Shown: positions 36,234-57,831, counted from the first letter of the stretch. The stretch: DNA of 64,000 nucleotides from Patescibacteria group bacterium (GCA_041665845.1 JBAYIC010000003.1:35656-99655); one strand, 5' to 3'. The notes: generated from the sequence alone by a model not told the origin. A program made the numbers and translations.

Positions 36234-36695
36234 ATGTTAAAAAAGCTTTTCTTAGCAACAATCTTGTCGGGAATATTTATTATAAATTTAGCGGCTGTTC
36301 AGGCAACAACATCGCCTACCGGTTTAGTACCAAAAGCGACCGGCGAAGCTTCTGTGGGATGTAATGCTCCAGCAGGGTCGGGACTTGATGATAAAACTTA
36401 CTGCGGAGATTATCGTCTTGAAGATTTTATTTCTATTGCAATTATCGCTTCTAAATGGATATTAGGAATAGTCGGCTCCTTATCTTTAGTGATGTTTATT
36501 TATGGCGGAATAATGTTTTTAATCTCAGCTGGTTCTAGCGATAAGATCGGACAAGCAAGAAAAATAATTATTGCCGCCATAGTCGGGTTAGTTATTGTTT
36601 TCTCCAGTTATTTAATCATTCAATTTGTGGTCAGTGGAATCGGAACGGTTGATAAATATAAATTTGATGGGAAGATTGATGTAACAACGCCTTAA
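36234..36695 (+). CDS. small secreted two-helix membrane protein, divergent paralogue of the 41195-43877 pilin-like family
   Basis: Signal peptide, then IYGGIMFLISAGSSDKIGQARKIIIAAIVGLVIVFSSYLIIQF, matching the family pattern (hydrophobic helix / short polar loop / IGL.IVL.AY.I..F helix). Confidence 0.5.
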   Translation: MLKKLFLATILSGIFIINLAAVQATTSPTGLVPKATGEASVGCNAPAGSGLDDKTYCGDYRLEDFISIAIIASKWILGIVGSLSLVMFIYGGIMFLISAGSSDKIGQARKIIIAAIVGLVIVFSSYLIIQFVVSGIGTVDKYKFDGKIDVTTP

Positions 36696-38420: not shown

Positions 38421-38777
38421 ATGAAAACGCAAACTCTAGGCCATTTTGGCGAAGAATTAATCTGTAAATATTTAAAAAATAATAATTACAAAATAATAAA
38501 CAATAATCATCGACTCGGACGCTTAGAAATCGATATTATTGCAACAAAAGCCGGTCGTTTATATTTTTTTGAGATAAAAACCAGAATAAAAAATGAAGAA
38601 AGTATCAAAGAAATACCTCTTCAGAAATCTCAAGCGAATAATTTAAAAAAAGCGGCTAGACGATACGCTACTACTCATCATATCAACTTAGAACTTATTA
38701 ATTTTGATTTAATAATAGTATTGCTCGATCGTCAAAAAAATACAGCAACCATTAAACGTTACGAAAATATCTTTTAA
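38421..38777 (+). CDS. YraN-family (UPF0102) endonuclease-like protein
   Basis: GEELICKYLKNNNYKIINNNHR...EIDIIA...YFFEIKTR, the YraN restriction-endonuclease-fold signature. Confidence 0.75.
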   Translation: MKTQTLGHFGEELICKYLKNNNYKIINNNHRLGRLEIDIIATKAGRLYFFEIKTRIKNEESIKEIPLQKSQANNLKKAARRYATTHHINLELINFDLIIVLLDRQKNTATIKRYENIF

Positions 38778-39498
38778 TCATTTTTAAATTAAATCTAAAC
38801 AAAACCAATTTTTTGATAAATTGGAAACTATCGCTAAAAATTCTAATTTTACTCTTTTTTGTGCTAGCTCTATTCTCACGCCAGGTAACCGCTATCTCTA
38901 AAACTTTTAACTTCGCGATTCCTGCTAAAACAACTAGTTCGGTATCAAAAAACCAATCATCATCAACTAAAAATTTTTCTATTTTTTTAAAAGCCGCGCT
39001 ACTTATTACTTTAAAACCACATTGAATATCTTGGACTTTATGATTTAACATTAATCTCGATAAAAAGGCATAACTCTTCGAAATTATTCCTCTTTGCAAA
39101 GATCGCTGTGCTGAAGCACCGGATATGAATCGAGAGCTAATAACTAAATCGGCTTCTTTCTTTAAAACTGGCCTCACTAATCTTTCTACGGCCTCTAAAG
39201 AAACGGCTAAATCAGCATCCATAAAAACTAACACTTCAGCGTCGCTTCTGCGCCAACACAATTTGATAGCTCCGCCTTTACCGGGCCTTTCAATATTTAT
39301 CAGATCTAATTTATCAAAAAAGCTATTTTTTACGCTCTCGACGATAAGAGCGGAGTCATCACTAGAACCATTAATCACGCCGATTATTTTCCAATCAAAA
39401 TCAAGCTTAATTGTATTTAAACAAGAAATCAGTTGTAAAAGATTATTTTCAATTACCTCGGCTTCATTTCTGATTGGTAAACAAAAGTCAACTCTCAT
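38752..39498 (-). CDS. GT2 glycosyltransferase, polyprenyl-phosphate sugar synthase-like (Dpm1/ArnC-like)
   Basis: GT-A fold motifs including FMDADL (DxD-like). Size and composition typical of dolichyl/undecaprenyl-phosphate sugar synthases. Confidence 0.7.
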   Translation of the reverse strand: MRVDFCLPIRNEAEVIENNLLQLISCLNTIKLDFDWKIIGVINGSSDDSALIVESVKNSFFDKLDLINIERPGKGGAIKLCWRRSDAEVLVFMDADLAVSLEAVERLVRPVLKKEADLVISSRFISGASAQRSLQRGIISKSYAFLSRLMLNHKVQDIQCGFKVISSAAFKKIEKFLVDDDWFFDTELVVLAGIAKLKVLEIAVTWRENRASTKKSKIRIFSDSFQFIKKLVLFRFNLKMIKRYFRNV

Positions 39499-39512: not shown

Positions 39513-41063
39513 TTAATTTCGAAAGTAAATTTTTGCAACCTTATCTTGATAGATAACTTCCCAGCCGTTTTCATCATCAAGATATTTTCTTAAATGATTA
39601 ACAGCCCGTAAATCACTATCTTTAATACCAAAAAATATTTTTTCCCATTTTTTAGCAGTTATCTGTTTATCTTCGGCACTCATTAAAATTAATTTTATAT
39701 TATACTCATCTAATTTTTCGCTTTGATTATTACCGGCACTAAAAAAATTATAATATTCTTGAATAAGCGTCCAGTTAGCAAACTCAACTTGCGGTAAACG
39801 TCCATCAATAAAAAGCTTTCTTTCCGGAATAGCCCAAATCATAAATCCCCCCCAATCATAGTTATTTAAAATCTTATCATCATTATACTGTGAATTATTT
39901 TTTAGAAAATCTATTGCCTCACAAGGATAATTATAACAAAAAGAGGAAAATGGAGTCTGAGTGAAATGAGTCGCTGAGAATTGAACGATGGCGATTAAAC
40001 AACCACAAAAGACTACAAGATATTTCAACCAATTATAATAAGCGACTTTTATTTCTTTAAAAAACGGGCTAAAAATATCAATCATTAAGCTAAAGGAGAC
40101 AACAAAGAACAAGGGAAAATGCCGACGAGACTTAAGGCTTAAGACTAAAAAAACAAATGATAAAAAAATTTCCCAAATATTTAGTTTTTGCCTTTTTTGC
40201 AATCTAAAATAAACATATAGAATTAAGGCGACCGCTCCCAGCGCCAAATAAATTAATTGATCATAGCGGAAGGGAAAAGAGGATTGTGGTAGCCATTCTT
40301 TAATCAGCGAGAGATATGCTTTATTTTTATATCCTAATAAAAAATTATAAAGCTCTAGCCGATACGGCGTTAACCCAGTAACTATTAGAGATAACAGGGC
40401 AAAGAGAGAAAATGAGCTAAGTTGCTTTAACTCGCCATTTTTAGTAATTATTTTTTCAAATAATTTAATTCCTATCCAAGAAAAAATAATAAAGAAGCCA
40501 ATTAGAAAACTAGCATGTAAATTAGCCCAGAGGAAAAACAAGGGCGGTAAGAACAATAAAACGCGCCAATTTTTAGATCGACTATAATGGTCAATGATTA
40601 TTAAAACTAACAAAACAAACAAAAGAGCTAGCTCTTGTATTCTAACCCCGAAATGTGGAATGGCCGCTAAGACCCCAAACAATTGAAAACTCGCTATTAA
40701 CCAAAAATTAGCCCTATCTTTTAATACCTGGCTAACATAAAAGTTAAGAATAACCAAGATTAAGATTATGAGTCCTGCAAAAATATTAACTAAAGCCGCA
40801 TAACCATAGTGATCATAAATATAATAAATAGCTAAATTACTTAACCACTCATGATCAACCCAATTGCCATGATAGGTGTAGTTATAAGTATTGAGCTGAG
40901 GAATTTGATAAGTAGTAGCTATTTCTTGACCAACTTTCAGATGCCAGCCAAAATCAGGATCGAGATTAGAAAAACCGCCTTTAACTAAAATGATAAATAA
41001 TAATAAATAGAAAAAAACCCAAAAAACGTAAACAAACTTTATTTTTTTTATCGCTTCTAACAT
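39513..41063 (-). CDS. polytopic membrane protein, probable GT-C-fold glycosyltransferase (ArnT/PMT-like)
   Basis: About 11 TM helices plus a C-terminal soluble domain. Directly downstream of a polyprenyl-phosphate sugar synthase-like GT2, the classic donor-synthase/GT-C pairing. The family assignment is inference. Confidence 0.45.
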   Translation of the reverse strand: MLEAIKKIKFVYVFWVFFYLLLFIILVKGGFSNLDPDFGWHLKVGQEIATTYQIPQLNTYNYTYHGNWVDHEWLSNLAIYYIYDHYGYAALVNIFAGLIILILVILNFYVSQVLKDRANFWLIASFQLFGVLAAIPHFGVRIQELALLFVLLVLIIIDHYSRSKNWRVLLFLPPLFFLWANLHASFLIGFFIIFSWIGIKLFEKIITKNGELKQLSSFSLFALLSLIVTGLTPYRLELYNFLLGYKNKAYLSLIKEWLPQSSFPFRYDQLIYLALGAVALILYVYFRLQKRQKLNIWEIFLSFVFLVLSLKSRRHFPLFFVVSFSLMIDIFSPFFKEIKVAYYNWLKYLVVFCGCLIAIVQFSATHFTQTPFSSFCYNYPCEAIDFLKNNSQYNDDKILNNYDWGGFMIWAIPERKLFIDGRLPQVEFANWTLIQEYYNFFSAGNNQSEKLDEYNIKLILMSAEDKQITAKKWEKIFFGIKDSDLRAVNHLRKYLDDENGWEVIYQDKVAKIYFRN

Positions 41064-41194
41064 AGAAATCGCTATTATAAGGCTAACATTCCCTATTCTA
41101 TCATAGGGCGATTTATTTGTCTTGTTGAAAGTAATATGCTAAAATTAGAGATGTAAAATTAAATTTATAAACATTAAAGAAAGGGGGTGAAAAT

Positions 41195-41605
41195 ATGAAA
41201 AAAATTTCTAAACACTTAATTTCATTAGCTATCATTTCTTTGTTAGTTCTACCTATTTTTGCTATCCCAGTTAGCGCACAAACTGGTTCTCAATTTGGGA
41301 CAACGGAAGTCAATACTGGACTAAACGGAATTTTAGCTAGCGGTGATCCAAGAGAAATGGTTGGCCGCATTATCAACGTCGCCCTAGGGTTCTTAGGCGT
41401 AATCGCCGTTGTTATCATCTTAATGGGTGGCTTCAAATGGATGACTGCCGGCGGAAATGAAGATAAAGTTGCTGAAGCTAAAAAATTGTTAGGAGCTGGT
41501 GTTATCGGCTTAGCAATCGTTTTGGCCGCTTGGTCTGTTGCAAATTTCGTTGTTACCTCTATCTACAACGCTACTAGCGCGACCAATGCTACTACATTTG
41601 AATAG
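41195..41605 (+). CDS. VirB2/TrbC-like small secreted two-helix protein (pilin-like), paralogue 1 of 6
   Basis: Strong SD AAAGGGGGTGA 7 nt upstream. Signal peptide ending VSAQT. Conserved GGFKWMTAGGNEDKVAEAKK loop between two hydrophobic helices. Confidence 0.6.
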   Translation: MKKISKHLISLAIISLLVLPIFAIPVSAQTGSQFGTTEVNTGLNGILASGDPREMVGRIINVALGFLGVIAVVIILMGGFKWMTAGGNEDKVAEAKKLLGAGVIGLAIVLAAWSVANFVVTSIYNATSATNATTFE

Positions 41606-41691
41606 TATGACGTGGTTCTCATCTTTGGTATGGGAATCACTGGTCCAAGTATAAAATGTTTACGCTTGGACCAGTGAATAAATACTTTTTT

Positions 41692-42084
41692 ATGAAGAAA
41701 AAAATCTTATCTTTTTTGGTTTTGATGTTTGCTATTGCTACAATATCTTTTCTTTTTTGGAACCCAGTTTTTGCTCAAACCGATCCAACCATAGACGGAT
41801 TAAATGAAAGCGCTAAAAAAGTTACCGCCTATGATACTAGTGCGAGCTATACTAATTTCTTGCAAACTAAGGCTGGGGTAATAATCGGTGTTGTTTTATC
41901 TTTTGTTGGCGTTCTCTTTTTAGCTCTAATGATTTATTCTGGTATTACTTGGATGACGGCTCAAGGGAATGAACAGCAAGTAACTAAAGCCAAAGGTCTC
42001 CTAATTAATGCTGTAATTGGGATTATAATCGTTTTTGCCGCTTACGCTATTACCTCCTTTATTGGTAGTAATTTCCTTGGTTAA
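41692..42084 (+). CDS. VirB2/TrbC-like pilin-like protein, paralogue 2
   Basis: Signal peptide ending VFAQT. SGITWMTAQGNEQQVTKAKG loop and second helix IGIIIVFAAYAITSF. Start at internal MKKKIL. Confidence 0.6.
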   Translation: MKKKILSFLVLMFAIATISFLFWNPVFAQTDPTIDGLNESAKKVTAYDTSASYTNFLQTKAGVIIGVVLSFVGVLFLALMIYSGITWMTAQGNEQQVTKAKGLLINAVIGIIIVFAAYAITSFIGSNFLG

Positions 42085-42107
42085 GTAAAAGTCTAAAACA
42101 AACAAAA

Positions 42108-42512
42108 ATGAGAAATTTCTTAACGAAAAACTCTATAAAACTATTGGCGTTAATCTTATTATTGGCGCCTGTTTTTATTTATAGCCAAGCGGCATATGGA
42201 CAAGATACTGGATATGATTTTGGTAAAGATAGCGGCTTAAATCAAACCGCTGATTCTGGCGGTTTTCTAACTGGAGCGAGCGCAATGACTGTAGATAGTC
42301 TACTAGCTAGAACTATTGCCGTTGTTTTGAGCCTAATTGGAGTTATTTTCTTAGTTTTTATAGTCTATGGAGGGTTCACTTGGATGACGGCTGATGGTAA
42401 AGAAGAAAAAATAAAATCAGCCAACACAACTATCACTAATTCATTATTTGGACTGATGATTACTCTTTCAGCCTATGTAATCAGTTATTTCTTAATTAAT
42501 TATTTCAGATAA
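42108..42512 (+). CDS. VirB2/TrbC-like pilin-like protein, paralogue 3
   Basis: Signal peptide ending AYGQD. GGFTWMTADGKEEKIKSAN loop. Confidence 0.6.
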   Translation: MRNFLTKNSIKLLALILLLAPVFIYSQAAYGQDTGYDFGKDSGLNQTADSGGFLTGASAMTVDSLLARTIAVVLSLIGVIFLVFIVYGGFTWMTADGKEEKIKSANTTITNSLFGLMITLSAYVISYFLINYFR

Positions 42513-42514
42513 TT

Positions 42515-42925
42515 ATGAGAAGTAAAATTAAAATAACAATTATCTTATTATTTCTAGCAATTACCTCCTTTTCTATAGTTCCAACTACAAAAGCCCAGGA
42601 GGGGATTCTTAAAGAAACTAAAAAAACTGAATTTAACAATAATTTAAATACTTTTGCCGATCAAGCGGCGATTGAAAGACAAAAAAGTCTAGAAGAAATG
42701 ATTGGAACGGCTATCAGAGTAGTGTTAACTGCTTTGGGAACGATTTTTATTGCCATGATGTTTGTTGCTGGGAATACTTGGATGCAAGCGGCTGGAAATG
42801 AAGAAAAAATAAAAAAATCACAAGAACGGATTCGATCCCTAATCATTGGTTTAATCATAGTGCTTATAGCTTATGCTCTAAGTGCGGGATTTTCTGGATT
42901 ATTGTCTAGAGCTTTATTAAAATAA
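42515..42925 (+). CDS. VirB2/TrbC-like pilin-like protein, paralogue 4
   Basis: Signal peptide ending TKAQE. AGNTWMQAAGNEEKIKKSQ loop. Starts 3 nt after the preceding stop. Confidence 0.6.
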   Translation: MRSKIKITIILLFLAITSFSIVPTTKAQEGILKETKKTEFNNNLNTFADQAAIERQKSLEEMIGTAIRVVLTALGTIFIAMMFVAGNTWMQAAGNEEKIKKSQERIRSLIIGLIIVLIAYALSAGFSGLLSRALLK

Positions 42926-42958
42926 ATTTCTTTATCTTAGATTTATATTAGAAAAGTT

Positions 42959-43432
42959 ATGAAAAAGTTTATTAAATTATCAATCCTATTGTCATTATTT
43001 TTGTTCTTAATTATTCCTTTTTCAGTTGGAGCTCAGATCGGTGACCGTCAATATCAAGAAGATTTCGAGCCAGACTTACAAGCAGATGAGACTAGCCTCA
43101 ATCCTCCACCAGCTAATCCATCTAATATGCCGACCCTAAAAGAAAGGTTGATGTCAGTTGGCGGTGCGGCTGGGTTTACTACCGATGAAACTAAGGCTTC
43201 AACCCCAAGAATAGTTGGTTTAATAGTCGGGGCTTTCATAAATTTTACCGGGTTAACATTCATTGTTTTGATGATTATTGCCGGTTACGGCTGGATGACC
43301 TCAAACGGAAATGAAGAGAAAGTTAAAAAATCAGTGAGTACAATTAAGGCCTCTATTATTGGTTTAATAGTTTCCTTATCCGCTTGGGCAATTTGGAGCT
43401 TAATTTTCCAGAGATTAATAATAGGCGGTTAA
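42959..43432 (+). CDS. VirB2/TrbC-like pilin-like protein, paralogue 5
   Basis: Signal peptide ending VGAQI. AGYGWMTSNGNEEKVKKSV loop. Has a longer Pro-rich mature N-terminal region. Confidence 0.6.
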   Translation: MKKFIKLSILLSLFLFLIIPFSVGAQIGDRQYQEDFEPDLQADETSLNPPPANPSNMPTLKERLMSVGGAAGFTTDETKASTPRIVGLIVGAFINFTGLTFIVLMIIAGYGWMTSNGNEEKVKKSVSTIKASIIGLIVSLSAWAIWSLIFQRLIIGG

Positions 43433-43445
43433 AAAAGATAAAAAT

Positions 43446-43877
43446 ATGATAAAAACAAAAAAAATCGCTTTAGCTTTATTTTCTTTAGGATTATTTTTCC
43501 AATTATTTTTTGGCTCAATTGCTTCTGCCCAATTACTTAGTACTACTACGGATTTAGATGGAATGACTAGAGTAACAAAAAATGCTGCTAATCTTGGAGA
43601 TATTTCAGTCGGTACCTTGGTTGCTCAAATAATAAAAGTTACCCTGAGTTTTTTAGCAATCATATTTTTAATCTTGATAGTTTTTGCTGGATTTAAATGG
43701 ATGACTGCTGGGGGAAACGAAGAACAAATCAAAAAATCAACTTCAACTATTACCGCGGCCGTTATTGGTTTAATAATTGTTCTTGCGGCTTATACAATAA
43801 CCTACTTTATCTTTAAGCAATTACCGTTTACCGGAGGAAGCAGTATTCAAGTTATGACTGGCGATGGTCAAAAATAA
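43446..43877 (+). CDS. VirB2/TrbC-like pilin-like protein, paralogue 6
   Basis: Signal peptide ending IASAQL. AGFKWMTAGGNEEQIKKST loop, second helix IGLIIVLAAYTITYF. Confidence 0.6.
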   Translation: MIKTKKIALALFSLGLFFQLFFGSIASAQLLSTTTDLDGMTRVTKNAANLGDISVGTLVAQIIKVTLSFLAIIFLILIVFAGFKWMTAGGNEEQIKKSTSTITAAVIGLIIVLAAYTITYFIFKQLPFTGGSSIQVMTGDGQK

Positions 43878-43962
43878 TATATTACTATTTTACAAATTGA
43901 AAAGGGAGCATCTGTGAAAGATACTCCCTTTTTATTTTTTGCTCTTGGTGAGCGTTTTGGCG

Positions 43963-44838
43963 TTACGGAAACCTTGGGGCCACTGCATAATTAAAGCAGG
44001 ACATCCCCTGATATTTCTTTTCTTGACCATCGATAGTCATCTTTCTGGGTTCACCAGAGCGACGTCCATTGATGTAGATTTCAATCATATACACTCCGGG
44101 GAGTAAATAATTCACCTCCATAGATTTAGGAGGAATCATGGTAGAAAATTCCCCAATTCCACCAACTTGGCGGGCAATAAAGTTAACTGGTTCGACATAC
44201 ATGTTGTCGAAGATAACTTTATAGCCACTCTGACGACCAGAAGGATTAATCGCTGCATTTAGGTTTTCTTCAACTTTAGTAATTACGAGCTCGTCCAACC
44301 TAGTTGAGTGTGAGCGAGAACGTTGATTCCTGTTTAACCTACTTAACCGAGTCGGAATAGAACGATCCATCGGATCAGCTTTAGGAGTTTTAGTAATCAT
44401 TGGTGTAGTAGTTGGAACGGTAGCAGTAGAGTCTTTAGCCGAAATGTTCAGCTTAGTGGGTTTTGATTGAGCAGTCAGTTGAATTTTTTCCTGTTGCACT
44501 TCGTAAAGAGCCTTTGTTAGATCCTTTACTTTTTGGTCAGCAGTTACAACCAGTTTAGAAACGGAGTCAGCTTGTTCATTTAGTTTTTTTACCAATATGC
44601 CCGCAGCATCTCTTTTGTTTGCGTCATCAGCCCTCGAGCCGATGAGTGTTTGCTGCTTTGCTTCCCTCTGAAGCGAAAATACTTTTCGAGTTTTCTCAAC
44701 CTCGAATTTCTTTTCAGCCTGAGCGAGTTCGGATTTAGCTTTTTTAATTTGGCGCTCCACTGAAGCCAAACCCTGAGCAAACGACTGGCCAACGGTTACT
44801 ACAACCATCAGCACTAAAACTACTAACATTTTTTTCAT
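43963..44838 (-). CDS. hypothetical secreted coiled-coil protein
   Basis: Signal peptide MKKMLVVLVLMVVVTVGQSFAQG, coiled-coil region, Thr/Pro-rich linker and C-terminal globular domain. Confidence 0.45.
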   Translation of the reverse strand: MKKMLVVLVLMVVVTVGQSFAQGLASVERQIKKAKSELAQAEKKFEVEKTRKVFSLQREAKQQTLIGSRADDANKRDAAGILVKKLNEQADSVSKLVVTADQKVKDLTKALYEVQQEKIQLTAQSKPTKLNISAKDSTATVPTTTPMITKTPKADPMDRSIPTRLSRLNRNQRSRSHSTRLDELVITKVEENLNAAINPSGRQSGYKVIFDNMYVEPVNFIARQVGGIGEFSTMIPPKSMEVNYLLPGVYMIEIYINGRRSGEPRKMTIDGQEKKYQGMSCFNYAVAPRFP

Positions 44839-45064: not shown

Positions 45065-45679
45065 ATGAAAATAATCCGAACAATTAGAGAGGAAATTGTA
45101 CCTCTCAGTAAACAGCAGGGGGTAATTCTCTTAGTAATTATCGCCTGTATCTTCCAATTCGTCCTTTTCTATGCACCAGCGCTTGCTGATGACGCCGTAA
45201 AACAAGCCAAAGCCCAAACAAATGAAGAAGATATGCTTGTTTTTAATGAAGTAATGATTAAAGATTCAATCACCAACACGGCAACCAAGAGCCAAGAAGC
45301 TTCTTCAACACCAGTCGTTATTACTGTCCCAGAAAGCACACCAGCCTCTTCAACCCCAGAATATAAGATTGTTAGAACCAGTACCCATACAATGACTGCT
45401 TATAACTCCGAACCTGGTCAAACTGATGATTCTCCTTGTATTACCGCTAACGGCTTCAATGTTTGTAAACATGGCGAAGAAGATACTATTGCAGCCAATT
45501 TTCTAAAGTTTGGAACAAAAGTTATGATCCCAGAATTATTTGGCGATAGAGTATTTACTGTTCGTGATCGCATGAACCAAAAACATCCTAATCGAGTAGA
45601 TGTTTGGATGAAGGATCATTCTAACGCTATGAAGTTCGGCGTTAAGGTCGCTAAAATCCAAGTAATCGAATATAATTAA
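45065..45679 (+). CDS. 3D-domain (MltA/RlpA-like double-psi beta-barrel) cell-wall protein
   Basis: TAYNSEPGQTDDSPCITANG...IAANFLKFGTKVMIPELFGDRVFTVRDRMN...VDVWM, typical of the 3D domain with three conserved Asp. N-terminal membrane anchor. Confidence 0.65.
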   Translation: MKIIRTIREEIVPLSKQQGVILLVIIACIFQFVLFYAPALADDAVKQAKAQTNEEDMLVFNEVMIKDSITNTATKSQEASSTPVVITVPESTPASSTPEYKIVRTSTHTMTAYNSEPGQTDDSPCITANGFNVCKHGEEDTIAANFLKFGTKVMIPELFGDRVFTVRDRMNQKHPNRVDVWMKDHSNAMKFGVKVAKIQVIEYN

Positions 45680-45763: not shown

Positions 45764-48175
45764 TTAGAAGAATAAACTAAGGAAGCCTCGCTTGCGTCTG
45801 AGTTGTTTTTCTTTTTTAACAATTGCGATTGTTGTTGGAATAACTGAATCAGGATTTAAAGATAAACTATTAATTCCCTGTTCTACTAAAAATTCAGCAA
45901 AGTCTGGAAAATCACTTGGACCTTGTCCGCAGATACCAACCTTACGACGGTTCTTTTTAGCGGAAGCAATTAAATTTTTAATTAATATTTTTACCGCCTC
46001 ATTTCTTTCATCAGAGCTACCAATTACTTCAAGAGTTCCGCCAGAGTCGCGATCTATTCCTAAAGTAAGTTGCGTTAAATCATTAGAACCAATGGAGAAG
46101 CCATCAAAAATATGACAAAACTTATCAGCTAAAATTATATTGGCCGGAATTTCTGCCATCATATAAACTTCTAAACCATTTTGTCCGCGTTTCAAACCAT
46201 TCTCCGCCATAATTTCCAATACTTTACGGCCCTCTTCAATGGTGCGGCAAAAAGGAACCATGACCTTCAAATTATTTAACTTCATTTTTTCACGAACAAT
46301 CTTAATTGCTTGGCATTCAAGCTTGAAGGCTGGTAGAAATACTTTTGAATAATAACGACTCGCGCCCCGAAAACCAATCATCGGATTAGATTCAATTGGC
46401 TCATAGGCTTTACCGCCAATTAAGTTAGCATATTCATTGCTTTTAAAATCACTGAGACGGAAAATAACATCCTTAGGATAAAAAGCGGCCGCGATCATTG
46501 CCATCCCCTGCGCTAAACGATCAACAAAATATTGTTTTTTATCATCATAACCGACTGTTAACTTATCAATTAATTTTTTAGCATCTTGATCAATTAATTT
46601 TTTATAATTAATTAAAGCAAGCGGATGAATCTTGATGTAGTTATTGATAATAAATTCCAATCTCGCTAGGCCAACGCCATCATTGGGAATCATCGAGTTT
46701 AAAAAGGCCATATCCGGTTCACCAATATTTAACATGATTTTTGTTTTTGGTTTTTTTAAATCCTTAACGTCTGTTGTTTCTAATTTAAATGGTATTAGTC
46801 CTTCATAAATATAACCCTTTTCTCCTTCCGCACAGCTCACGGTAATTTTTTTACCGGTTTTTATTTTAGTCGAAACATTTTTTGTCCCAACTACACAGGG
46901 AATTCCCAATTCACGAGAAACTATCGCCGCATGGCAAGTACGTCCCCCTTTATCAGTTACAATCGCGGAAGCAATTTTCATAATCGGCTCCCAATCCGGA
47001 TCAGTCATATCAGTTACCAGCACTTGCCCAGGTTTAAAACTAGCAATATTTTTAATACTCATCATCCTGTTAGCTATTCCCGAGCCAATCTTATTACCAA
47101 CACTTTGACCCGTACAAATTAACTTGCCTTTCTTTTCTAGACTATATCTTTCAATAATATTTTTATTATGAACACTTTGAACCGTTTCTGGGCGAGCTTG
47201 AATAATAAATAATTCGTTAGTCCGGCCATCTAAGGCCCATTCGATATCCATTGGTCTCCCATAATGTTCTTCGATCATCATTCCCCACTCAGCTAACTGA
47301 ACAACTTGCTTATCGGAAATCGATTGTTTTAGTTGATCAAACGCAGAAACGGGAATGTTTTTTACCGGATTTTTACCCTTAAAGTCATAAATCATTTTCT
47401 TAGATTTTTGACCGATACTTTTAGAAATTATCGCCTTAGTCGGTTTAAAGAAATAAAATTCATCGGGCGTAACATGTCCCTGAACAATATTTTCACCTAA
47501 ACCAAAAATCGAATTAATCAAAACGGCATTCTTAAAACCTGATTCTGTATCAATCGTGAACATAACCCCGGATGAGCCTAAATCAGCTCTAACCATTTTC
47601 TGGACGCCCACTGATAGCGCGATAGAGAAGTGATCAAACTTCTTATCAACTCGATAAGAAATAGCCCGATTAGTAAACAAAGAAGCGATACATTTTTTAA
47701 CGGCTAAAAGTAAGTCTTTATCACCGGTAACATTTAAAAAGGTTTCTTGTTGCCCGGCAAAAGAAGCATCGGGTAAATCTTCCGCCGTTGCGCTTGAACG
47801 AACTGCAACATCAGTTCCCTTTGATTTATACTGAGCGGATAAAGTTTTATAAGCGGAAATTATTTCATCAGCGAAATCTTTCGGGAAAGGAACAGAAATA
47901 ATTAATTTTCTAATTTCTTCACCGCGTTTCATTAAATCTTTAATATCGTGCGTATCCAAACCTTTTAAGATTTTTTTTATTTTTGTTTTTAAATCGGCTG
48001 ATTCAAAAAAATATCGGTAGGCATTAGCAGTAGTTGCAAATCCATTAGGGACGCGCAAACCTTTTTTAGCTAAAGTGCAGTACATTTCCCCAAGAGAAGC
48101 ATTCTTGCCGCCGACTTCCGGGACATCCTTAATAGAAGTTTCTTCAAAAAATTTAACGTATTTGTTCTTAGTCAT
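45764..48175 (-). CDS. ppsA: phosphoenolpyruvate synthase (PEP-utilising enzyme family)
   Basis: N-terminal VGGKNASLGEM (PpsA ATP-grasp), central phosphohistidine motif GGRTCHAAIVSRELGIPCVVG, C-terminal PEP-utilisers TIM barrel. About 800 aa. Confidence 0.85.
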   Translation of the reverse strand: MTKNKYVKFFEETSIKDVPEVGGKNASLGEMYCTLAKKGLRVPNGFATTANAYRYFFESADLKTKIKKILKGLDTHDIKDLMKRGEEIRKLIISVPFPKDFADEIISAYKTLSAQYKSKGTDVAVRSSATAEDLPDASFAGQQETFLNVTGDKDLLLAVKKCIASLFTNRAISYRVDKKFDHFSIALSVGVQKMVRADLGSSGVMFTIDTESGFKNAVLINSIFGLGENIVQGHVTPDEFYFFKPTKAIISKSIGQKSKKMIYDFKGKNPVKNIPVSAFDQLKQSISDKQVVQLAEWGMMIEEHYGRPMDIEWALDGRTNELFIIQARPETVQSVHNKNIIERYSLEKKGKLICTGQSVGNKIGSGIANRMMSIKNIASFKPGQVLVTDMTDPDWEPIMKIASAIVTDKGGRTCHAAIVSRELGIPCVVGTKNVSTKIKTGKKITVSCAEGEKGYIYEGLIPFKLETTDVKDLKKPKTKIMLNIGEPDMAFLNSMIPNDGVGLARLEFIINNYIKIHPLALINYKKLIDQDAKKLIDKLTVGYDDKKQYFVDRLAQGMAMIAAAFYPKDVIFRLSDFKSNEYANLIGGKAYEPIESNPMIGFRGASRYYSKVFLPAFKLECQAIKIVREKMKLNNLKVMVPFCRTIEEGRKVLEIMAENGLKRGQNGLEVYMMAEIPANIILADKFCHIFDGFSIGSNDLTQLTLGIDRDSGGTLEVIGSSDERNEAVKILIKNLIASAKKNRRKVGICGQGPSDFPDFAEFLVEQGINSLSLNPDSVIPTTIAIVKKEKQLRRKRGFLSLFF

Positions 48176-56910: not shown

Positions 56911-57831
56911 TTATAGCAATTTAGGCTTCATTTGAATATATTGATAAGCGCTCAAAGCGGCGATGGTTGCTTGTCCCATTGCAATAGTGATTTGTTTAAA
57001 TTCACAATCAGTAACATCGCCGGCCGCATACAGACCAGGCGTTTTAGTTTCCATATTATTCCCTACTAAAATTTGATTTTTATCGTTACGCTCAACAAAT
57101 TCAGAAACCAAATCAGTGCTCGCAATACGGCCAACTTCAACAAAAACTCCATCAACCAAAATTTCTCTCTCCGAAGCATCTTTTCTATCTAAAACAATAA
57201 CTTTTTCAACTTTACCAGAACCTGAAATATCTTTTATTTCTGCGTTCATGATTATTTCTATATTTTTTCTTTCTTTGACTTCATTCATCAGCGTATCAAA
57301 GGCTTTAAAAGTATCATTTCTATGAATAAGATAAATTTGTGAAGCTATTTTAGACATAAACTCAGCGGCATCAAGTGCAGAATTACCACCACCAATTATC
57401 GCTACTTTTTTGTTCTTATAGAAAGGGCCGTCACAATTAGCACAATAAGAGACCCCCTTGCCATTAAATTCGATTTCACCAGGGACAGCTAAACGTCGTG
57501 GAGAAAGCCCCATAGCGATAATTACCGTTTTAGCTTCAAATGATTCTCTAGCGGTATGTAATAAAAAACTATCCGTGTTTGTCTTTTCTATTTTTTGAAC
57601 CTCATCATCCTTAAATTCTACTCCAGCGTTACCGGTTTGTTGTCTAATTCTTTGAATAAGTTCAAAACTTTTAACTATTTCAAAACCAGGGTAATTTTCA
57701 ATTTCATTCGCCCAAACTAATTGACCGCCAAGTTCTTTGCCAATAATAAGAGTTTTCATTTCCCTTCTAACCGCATATATACCAGCCGTCATACCAGCTG
57801 GTCCTGAACCAATTATTATTACATCATACAT
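56911..57831 (-). CDS. trxB: thioredoxin-disulfide reductase
   Basis: FAD motif DVIIIGSGPAGMTAG, redox-active CANCDG, NADPH motif VAIIGGGNSALD. 306 aa. Confidence 0.85.
   Translation of the reverse strand: MYDVIIIGSGPAGMTAGIYAVRREMKTLIIGKELGGQLVWANEIENYPGFEIVKSFELIQRIRQQTGNAGVEFKDDEVQKIEKTNTDSFLLHTARESFEAKTVIIAMGLSPRRLAVPGEIEFNGKGVSYCANCDGPFYKNKKVAIIGGGNSALDAAEFMSKIASQIYLIHRNDTFKAFDTLMNEVKERKNIEIIMNAEIKDISGSGKVEKVIVLDRKDASEREILVDGVFVEVGRIASTDLVSEFVERNDKNQILVGNNMETKTPGLYAAGDVTDCEFKQITIAMGQATIAALSAYQYIQMKPKLL

Follow-up and report, generated by a model that had tools for sequence, protein, structure and literature searches.

Much of the bacterial diversity that is still uncultivated belongs to the Patescibacteria, whose cultivated members live attached to host cells. 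Here we describe six consecutive genes (positions 41195-43877), together with a seventh copy upstream of them, in a stretch of 64,000 nucleotides (nt) from a Patescibacteria group bacterium (GCA_041665845.1, JBAYIC010000003.1:35656-99655). We refer to this whole stretch as the window, and coordinates are counted throughout from its first letter. We consider it fairly likely that the six genes form a single operon of anciently duplicated pilin genes of the Pfam family PF18895 and that their products, with that of the seventh paralogue, are subunits of a type IV secretion system (T4SS) pilus or of a pilus-like extension of the T4SS channel.

A survey of 3,035 Patescibacteria genomes with the Pfam models PF18895 and PF04956 was made by Quinonero-Coronel et al. 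(2025, PMC12102498). They found VirB2-like pilins in 1,948 VirB4-positive assemblies, in 1,135 of which the pilins are near virB4, and in 383 assemblies they counted 441 arrays, each of 2-11 pilin genes, with a mean identity of 25% and a maximum of 54%. In Southlakia epibionticum, the predicted pilin series inside the T4SS cluster is essential (Wang et al. 2023, PMC10633639); this series consists of six structurally conserved, sequence-divergent VirB2-like pilins (2025 review, PMC12857230). The existence of multi-copy small pilins in the candidate phyla radiation (CPR)/Patescibacteria, which an earlier note on this DNA had mentioned, is documented in these three papers. Since such arrays are already published, the present locus is a further example of a described kind. 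It resembles the six-pilin series of S. epibionticum ML1, the "Sec-secreted array" of TM7x and the 441 arrays of the survey in that the proteins belong to the same Pfam family and have the same architecture, the paralogues are in tandem and divergent (27-36% pairwise identity to gene 1 here), the six copies fall within the published range, and the genes are chromosomal in a monoderm ultrasmall bacterium. It also agrees with the definition of an array used in PMC12102498, namely at least two PF18895 or VirB2-like genes that are in tandem or have one non-pilin gene between them. It differs in that it lies outside a T4SS cluster, with no VirB4 in the 76 kb examined, and in its class, ABY1, whereas the published arrays are particularly numerous in the Microgenomatia and the Saccharimonadia (PMC12102498). 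Taken by itself, the array is unremarkable for a family that is already published; what is new here is an RNA double hairpin and the linkage to two genes of the GT-C and GT2 glycosyltransferase types. These two features and the position-specific orthology described below are not mentioned in PMC10633639, PMC12102498 or PMC12857230, and we found no paper linking pilin arrays with a glycosyltransferase or an RNA motif.

The seven genes are listed here with the lengths of their products in amino acids (aa) and their scores against PF18895.

41195..41605, + strand: pilin gene 1, 136 aa, candidate major subunit; 34.7 bits
41692..42084, + strand: pilin gene 2, 130 aa from the corrected start, which we think the probable one (the open reading frame, ORF, opens at 41656, which gives 41656-42084 and 142 aa); 32.1 bits
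42108..42512, + strand: pilin gene 3, 134 aa; 27.9 bits
42515..42925, + strand: pilin gene 4, 136 aa; 24.3 bits (147 bits against the profile of the seven copies, gene 4 included)
42959..43432, + strand: pilin gene 5, 157 aa, with the longest variable segment; 26.1 bits
43446..43877, + strand: pilin gene 6, 143 aa; 31.2 bits (NCBIfam NF045849, E 1.2e-7, below the cut-off)
36234..36695, + strand: pilin copy 7, 153 aa, divergent, between a solute-binding-protein gene and a RodZ-like gene; 30.0 bits

PF18895 (T4SS_pilin, "Type IV secretion system pilin") is the best match of all seven copies. Five of them score above its curated gathering cut-off of 26.6 bits, while gene 4 is short of it by 2.3 bits and gene 5 by 0.5 bits; these two genes reach 147-150 bits against a profile built from the seven copies, which includes both. 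When this profile is compared with the six-frame translation of the window, it recovers the seven copies only (E 1e-37 to 1e-50), and the next match has an E value of 0.15. A database search with the same profile returns 2058 homologues, nearly all of which belong to PF18895. The product of gene 1 is 100% identical to an NCBI entry (P0007) named "MAG: pilin [Patescibacteria group bacterium]", and that of gene 5 is identical to NCBI WCT50_02235 (P0004). A tblastn search with gene 6 against the 72,556 plasmids of PLSDB gives no match, so that the family is not detectably plasmid-borne in that database. The six same-strand paralogues of a common architecture and the seventh copy, 4.5 kb upstream of the array, are thus present as the earlier note had proposed; the gaps between the array genes, which it gave as 2-47 nt, measure 50, 23, 2, 33 and 13 nt when the ORF of gene 2 is taken from 41656.

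According to hydropathy, each copy begins with a hydrophobic, signal-like segment that ends in A/Q or G/Q (A/T in copy 7), followed by a polar segment of 25-58 residues and by two long hydrophobic segments on either side of a conserved loop. The AlphaFold2 model of the pilin has helices at 2-27, 52-84 and 89-133. The layout of PF18895 proteins, a signal peptide and then a C-terminal pair of hydrophobic helices, is therefore seen both by hydropathy and in the model, and the succession of signal peptide, variable segment, helix, loop and helix previously proposed for these proteins is apparent in all seven. The conserved loop is also there, with the motif W-M-[TQ]-[AS]-x-G-[NK]-E-[EDQ]-[KQ]-[IV]-x-x-[AS]; the pattern first written for it was too strict, as the residue before W may be K, T or G and the end of the motif is looser. 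The six array paralogues have a mean identity of no more than 19% over the mature N-terminal segment, compared with 34% and 37% for the two helices and 53% for the loop, so the alignment bears out the idea that variation is concentrated in the mature N-terminal part. When orthologues are compared, evolution is fastest in the N-terminal segment and in the C-terminal tail, and slowest in helix 1 and in the loop. The exposed segments of the pilins contain 20-24% Ser+Thr.

Two side observations concern the range of forms in the family. In copy 7, the variable segment contains two cysteines (CNAPAGSGLDDKTYC) and the loop differs from that of the other copies (ISAGSSDKIGQARK); the gene begins 6 nt past the solute-binding-protein gene and ends 36 nt before the RodZ-like gene, an arrangement that is conserved in the clade. 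Elsewhere, there are proteins of 259-262 aa in which two PF18895 units are fused ("double pilins"), in arrays from another lineage and beside dnaA-dnaN (locus L095, 10001-10780; P0001, P0002), and ORFs of 300-1150 aa that match the pilin profile (L158, 6560-9238 and 9219-12689; also L156, L167 and L173). The latter sit within long arrays of up to 13-14 profile matches, and may encode large extracellular proteins with a pilin-type membrane hairpin.

The comparison of the locus with its relatives tells us more about the history of the array. The window is part of an ENA metagenome contig of 101,992 bp. Judging from the identity of the neighbouring phosphoenolpyruvate (PEP) synthase (92-70%), the nearest relatives are Candidatus Falkowbacteria, of the GTDB class ABY1. 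The array belongs to a conserved block that reads SMC, ComM, solute-binding protein, pilin copy 7, RodZ-like protein, methyltransferase, a further gene, UPF0102, GT2 (- strand), a 516-aa membrane protein (- strand), the six pilins and PEP synthase (- strand). The whole block is kept in many related genomes, including the complete 977-kb chromosome CP066698.1, and relatives have copy 7 in the same place. The array positions 1 to 6 and copy 7 are orthologous one to one (the best match is the same position) across at least 19 related loci, which span PEP-synthase identities from 92% to about 70%, and the number and the order of the genes are stable. Conservation is highest for gene 1 (80-85% identity, compared with 87-92% for PEP synthase) and lowest for the orthologues of genes 3 and 4 (53-68%). 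This one-to-one orthology shows that the paralogues are old and individually maintained, and that they are not a fast-turnover variation cassette. It favours fixed and distinct roles, as putative major and minor subunits, over antigenic variation.

Regarding transcription, the signals found around the array are the following.

41117..41145, + strand: promoter-like site (TTGTCT, 17 nt, TG-TAAAAT), about 50 nt upstream of gene 1; a pattern match only, from a consensus scan
41180..41190, + strand: strong Shine-Dalgarno sequence of gene 1, AAAGGGGGTGA; a sequence match
43898..43940, no strand assigned: intrinsic terminator with a stem of 11+4 bp and flanking A-tract and T-tract, between convergent genes

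The terminator sits in the 85-nt gap before the convergent gene, and the RNA of 43865-43975 folds with -29 kcal/mol (z -3.95). Since the genes are tightly spaced, with one promoter-like site ahead of them and a strong terminator after gene 6, these signals support a single transcription unit. (Another terminator-like site, within gene 3 at 42146-42169, was treated as a chance match.) The earlier note had also proposed an operon, on the argument that gene 1 is the only one with a strong Shine-Dalgarno sequence. The operon stands on the spacing, the promoter-like site and the terminator, but the argument does not: 50 of 55 genes of the window have no Shine-Dalgarno-like motif between -21 and -4, so that its absence from genes 2-6 is uninformative about the operon. 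What the ribosome-binding site of gene 1 suggests is high translation, because it is one of only two in these 55 genes with a Shine-Dalgarno-like match of at least 5 bases (the other belongs to the gene at 56911-57831).

The start of gene 2 probably has to be moved. ATG 41656 opens the longest ORF and was also chosen by the gene caller on a Logan contig (L081). However, it falls in the loop of the second hairpin of the conserved RNA described below, and it is a start 36 nt further on, ATG-AAG-AAA at 41692, that is kept in relatives. For these two reasons we think that translation probably begins at 41692.

The spacer that separates gene 1 from this start contains an additional element.

41609..41683, + strand: intercistronic RNA double hairpin, directly 3' of gene 1; supported by fold energy and covariation

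This 86-nt spacer folds as two adjacent hairpins, A and B, with a minimum free energy of -34.3 kcal/mol (z -4.6). In an alignment of 19 species, 18 of the 26 base pairs show compensatory double changes and 95% of the cells are paired, a share that drops to 35-46% once the partners are slid; none of 500 shuffles reaches the observed covariation values. With a covariance model, the motif is recovered once in the window, once in each of 22 related loci (0.9 Mb) and in about 45 further copies in metagenome loci, always immediately 3' of a pilin of the gene-1 type. The element occurs twice where this pilin is duplicated: at L130 (1066-2113), two tandem gene-1-type pilins are each followed by their own double hairpin, which indicates that the gene and the RNA element duplicate together. 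No Rfam family matches the double hairpin, and the matches obtained in this region at relaxed thresholds are chance microRNA-type hairpins. The stem sequence is conserved in this two-hairpin motif. The T-run starts 9-12 nt past the stem, hence the element is not a canonical terminator.

Intercistronic stem-loops, such as the one 3' of papA, set subunit ratios in fimbrial operons. The present element is comparable to that of papA in that a stable structure lies directly 3' of the first, presumably major, subunit gene, and differs from it in having two hairpins, a conserved stem sequence, no U-tract directly after the stem and no Rfam family. We see it as a candidate for a new cis-regulatory or stabilising element, which could stabilise or attenuate the transcript and so raise the ratio of gene 1 to genes 2-6. 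As a side observation, the CAC that opens hairpin B (41638-41640) could pair with the GTG 5' of hairpin A (41613-41615), which would extend hairpin A to 11 bp; pairing of 41638-41640 either with 41613-41615 or with 41674-41676 is a possible alternative between the two hairpins.

The mechanism that we propose is the following. Each precursor would be exported by Sec and its signal peptide probably removed. The mature protein would then expose a short, disordered N-terminus rich in Ser, Thr, Gly and Asn outside the cell, keep its hydrophobic helical hairpin in the membrane and place the conserved Lys/Glu-rich loop on the cytoplasmic side; the resulting topology would be that of VirB2-type pilins. 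The proteins would be subunits of the pilus, or of a pilus-like channel extension, of the monoderm-type T4SS common to most Patescibacteria, whose assembly would depend on VirB4. Gene 1 probably encodes the major subunit: its ribosome-binding site is the strongest of the window, no other copy is as conserved, and it is followed by the RNA double hairpin, which would probably stabilise the gene 1 transcript or partly end it. Genes 2-6 and copy 7 would code for less abundant subunits with fixed and distinct roles.

How this family relates to classical VirB2/TrbC pilins (PF04956; Agrobacterium VirB2, RP4 TrbC, diderm T4SS) has to be considered separately. The two have in common a long signal peptide, a hydrophobic hairpin and a short charged loop. 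For a reference set of five annotated VirB2/TrbC proteins of mating-pair-formation type T (MPF_T) plasmids, all encoded beside virB3 and four of them also adjoining a virB1-type lytic transglycosylase gene, a profile-profile alignment (hhalign) with 54 members of the present family gives a probability of 20.7% and an E value of 1.1e-3 over 55 columns, with the helices in the same order and a common G-x-x-W-M that closes helix 1. A precomputed PF04956 match is recorded for several close homologues, and one is labelled VirB2 by JGI. The present proteins differ in their variable N-terminal segment of 25-58 aa and in the lack of an adjacent virB3 or virB4, and nothing here indicates cyclisation or a TraF-like peptidase. 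The model NF045849 ("pilin-like conjugal transfer protein", from a Mycoplasma integrative and conjugative element, ICE; Mbov_0395/MMCAP2_0565) offers another comparison. We scanned genes 1, 6 and 7 only, which score 26.7, 31.3 and 9.3 bits against a cut-off of 40 bits (E 3e-6 for gene 1 and 1e-7 for gene 6). It is the best NCBIfam match of genes 1 and 6, both helices are covered, and it comes from monoderm conjugation, which is consistent with the MPF-FATA ancestry proposed for the T4SS of Patescibacteria. The differences are the scores of 27-31 bits, below the cut-off, and the fact that this is a domain of 80 positions on a mobile element, as opposed to a chromosomal array of six genes.

Several results weigh against the mechanism proposed above. 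The similarity to VirB2 is below accepted thresholds at the level of Pfam, of PDB sequences and of profile-profile comparison. No copy reaches the PF04956 cut-off of 27.9 bits (gene 2 scores 21.2 bits, E 3.4e-4, gene 3 scores 12.7 bits and the others have no match); the hidden Markov model of the family finds nothing below E 1 among PDB sequences, where it meets designed helical proteins only; and fold searches return generic helical hairpins alone and do not set the present one apart from hundreds of unrelated ones. Pfam scans detect no VirB4, VirD4, VirB6 or type IV pilus ATPase in the 76 kb formed by the window and 12 kb of flanks, nor are VirB4, VirD4, VirB6 or VirB3 found within 10 kb of about 90 related arrays (2.25 Mb), a search made without a positive control. 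In the published reviews the pilus is given as a possibility only, and they report no filament of this family that has been purified or imaged (PMC12857230). Finally, the roles assigned above to gene 1 and to the RNA element are deduced from sequence alone. Thus the earlier description of these proteins as VirB2/TrbC-like pilins is right as far as the named family, PF18895, is concerned, but direct homology to classical VirB2/TrbC is weakly supported, and it is by inference that the family is tied to classical VirB2 and to a working pilus.

The absence from the window of VirB4, VirD4, VirB6 and type IV pilus ATPases, which the earlier note had also reported, agrees with Pfam scans of about 60 ORFs. 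The window and its flanks contain housekeeping genes instead (SMC, ComM, solute-binding proteins, RodZ-like protein, PEP synthase, Lgt, LspA, EF-P, SSB, TsaD/E, RNase J). Jackhmmer searches of the related loci started from Agrobacterium VirB4 and VirB6 and from PrgJ, PcfC, PrgH and PrgI of pCF10 give zero matches; this is a weaker negative than it looks, because no known Patescibacteria VirB4 served as a positive control. Pfam scans of the large ORFs near distant arrays reveal no T4SS parts either. Within the loci searched, the pilin arrays of this clade appear to be consistently apart from any T4SS ATPase. Of 19 Falkowbacteria assemblies taken from Table S1 in PMC12102498, 17 have VirB4, which suggests that the cognate T4SS machinery is probably encoded elsewhere in the chromosome.

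Two genes that diverge from the array come into play at this point.

39513..41063, - strand: 516-aa polytopic membrane protein with a predicted GT-C fold, divergent from gene 1; AlphaFold2 and Foldseek
38752..39498, - strand: GT2 glycosyltransferase of the polyprenyl-phosphate-sugar synthase type; Pfam Glycos_transf_2

The 516-aa protein has no match in Pfam or NCBIfam. It has 454 detectable homologues; none of the 120 matches listed is functionally named, and those among them with a named organism are from Patescibacteria. Its AlphaFold2 model (pLDDT 88.3, pTM 0.88) was compared with the PDB using Foldseek: the best 21 matches are the oligosaccharyltransferases STT3, AglB and PglB and the C-mannosyltransferase DPY19 (E 2e-6 to 7e-4, with a TM-score, normalised by the query, of up to 0.65), followed by AftA and ArnT. 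The C-terminal domain alone matches the globular domain of AglB-S2 (E 3e-3). Two motifs are invariant in the family: L-D-x-D-x-G-W-H (D34-x-D36), which lies in the first external loop, and N-x-Y-x-W-G-G, which is similar but not identical to the canonical catalytic motif WWDYG. The predicted structure hence combines the polytopic fold, the D-x-D of an external loop and the C-terminal external domain that define GT-C enzymes. As for the GT2 protein, its best NCBIfam matches are AglJ, ArnC, PpgS and a Dol-P-hexose transferase, all below cut-offs; its gene overlaps the 3' end of a UPF0102 gene (38421-38777), and is likely to form a two-gene unit with the GT-C-like gene.

Of the 67 arrays for which enough upstream sequence is available, 49 have a homologue of the 516-aa protein immediately upstream of their first pilin gene; one of these is in a dnaA-dnaN context (L095), and in another the homologue is co-oriented with the array (L155). 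It is important to note that much of this adjacency comes from a single syntenic clade, where the gene order may have been inherited. Three arrays that lack the 516-aa homologue (L151, L163, L168) have next to them a GT2 homologue and an orphan protein that is about 525 aa long and has 7-8 membrane helices; hhalign comparison of these orphans with the 516-aa family (P 0.016-0.07) does not show common ancestry. In the pilins themselves, the C-terminal tails contain more N-x-S/T than shuffled sequences do (66, where shuffles give 45.0 +/- 5.5), which is not the case for the N-terminal segments (155, where shuffles give 142 +/- 10), and gene-1 orthologues often keep Y-N-x-T right after helix 2. 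The adjacency of the GT-C and GT2 genes and this modest sequence signal suggest that the pilins may be glycosylated.

Filament subunits that are served by glycosyltransferases are known from the pilA-tfpO and pilA-tfpW systems of Pseudomonas and from the AglB-glycosylated pilins and archaellins of archaea, and streptococcal GtrB with a GT-C enzyme O-glycosylates Ser/Thr-rich, disordered extracytoplasmic regions (PMC11092751). The likeness lies in a subunit gene beside a GT-C and a polyprenyl-phosphate-sugar GT2 and in exposed segments that are disordered and Ser/Thr-rich; the difference is that the substrates of those systems are type IV or archaeal pilins or unrelated membrane proteins, while the acceptor here is putative and the enzyme family unannotated. 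One may imagine a self-contained module, in which a dedicated GT-C and GT2 pair would glycosylate the exposed Ser/Thr/Asn-rich ends of the products of the pilin operon, and the RNA hairpin would set the ratio of major to minor subunits; we regard this module as possible but rather doubtful. No VirB2-type pilin is known to us to be glycosylated and, if the idea is true, this would be, to our knowledge, the first glycosylated conjugative-type (VirB2-class) pilus.

It may also be that the six proteins are interchangeable, alternative major pilins used for antigenic variation or to match host strains, as has been proposed for the multi-copy VirB2 of Bartonella and Anaplasma; PMC12102498 suggests likewise for the Patescibacteria arrays, and the earlier note had considered antigenic diversification. 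The low identity of the paralogues in the exposed N-terminal segment, compared to the loop, is what such a function would produce, as is the fast evolution of the same segment among orthologues. However, the genes have one-to-one orthologues at fixed positions in at least 19 loci, with a stable number and order, over the whole range of PEP-synthase identities given above. Moreover, all six are in one operon, where no trace of silent cassettes, inversion sites or gene conversion is seen, and the dedicated RNA element follows gene 1 only. We therefore find this explanation unlikely, and the orthology speaks against antigenic diversification in particular.

According to another hypothesis, the proteins are not T4SS pilus subunits: they would instead be small glycoproteins of the cell surface with a membrane anchor, or carriers, on which the GT-C and GT2 proteins act, and they would build or decorate the envelope without depending on VirB4. 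This would account for the GT-C-fold protein beside most arrays, including those in another chromosomal context, for the three further arrays with a GT2 and an orphan 525-aa polytopic protein, for the failure to find VirB4, VirD4 or VirB6 near any array, and for the Ser+Thr content of the exposed segments and the sequons of the C-terminal tails. On the contrary, the same Pfam family is found inside T4SS clusters and is essential there in Saccharibacteria, and glycosylation is compatible with the formation of a pilus. Besides, the adjacency may reflect the gene order of a single clade, as said above, and the enrichment in sequons is modest and absent from the N-terminal segments, so that we consider this hypothesis quite unlikely. 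That the seven copies are holins, bacteriocin-immunity proteins or other unrelated small membrane proteins with two helices is very improbable: the topology is generic, and fold searches bring up generic hairpins, but no copy has a match in PHROGs, which leads us to reject the holin/phage idea, and no such family appears in the Pfam and NCBIfam scans. The surroundings are conserved housekeeping genes with no phage or bacteriocin context, and a cleavable signal peptide is atypical for holins. The reading of the array as an operon of T4SS pilus or channel-extension subunits is the one that we retain.

Some other observations concern the downstream neighbours. The gene at 43963-44838 (- strand) encodes a secreted protein of 291 aa that matches no family and whose N-terminal half is coiled-coil-like, and that at 45065-45679 (+ strand) encodes a 204-aa protein that weakly resembles the C-terminal region of the cell-wall-binding Ent proteins of Bacillus (E 4e-5, far under the cut-off); in relatives, both recur at the corresponding place. 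The PEP synthase (45764-48175, - strand) has relatives with 55-63% identity in metagenome-assembled genomes of DPANN and other archaea (Woesearchaeota, Nanoarchaeota, Altiarchaeota, Thermoplasmata). Several close Patescibacteria relatives are publicly mislabelled "uncultured Gammaproteobacteria" or "Methanosarcinales".

The T4SS and its pilin array are among the few systems that have been shown to be essential for the host-attached lifestyle of Patescibacteria. In the present clade, the existence of ancient, position-specific orthologues argues for a structure made of several components over antigenic variation, and the conserved RNA structure at the first gene points to a controlled stoichiometry. 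Last, the array is apart from the secretion ATPase and yet linked to glycosyltransferase genes across the clade, which may mean either that the pilus is glycosylated or that these pilins have a role that is independent of the T4SS.

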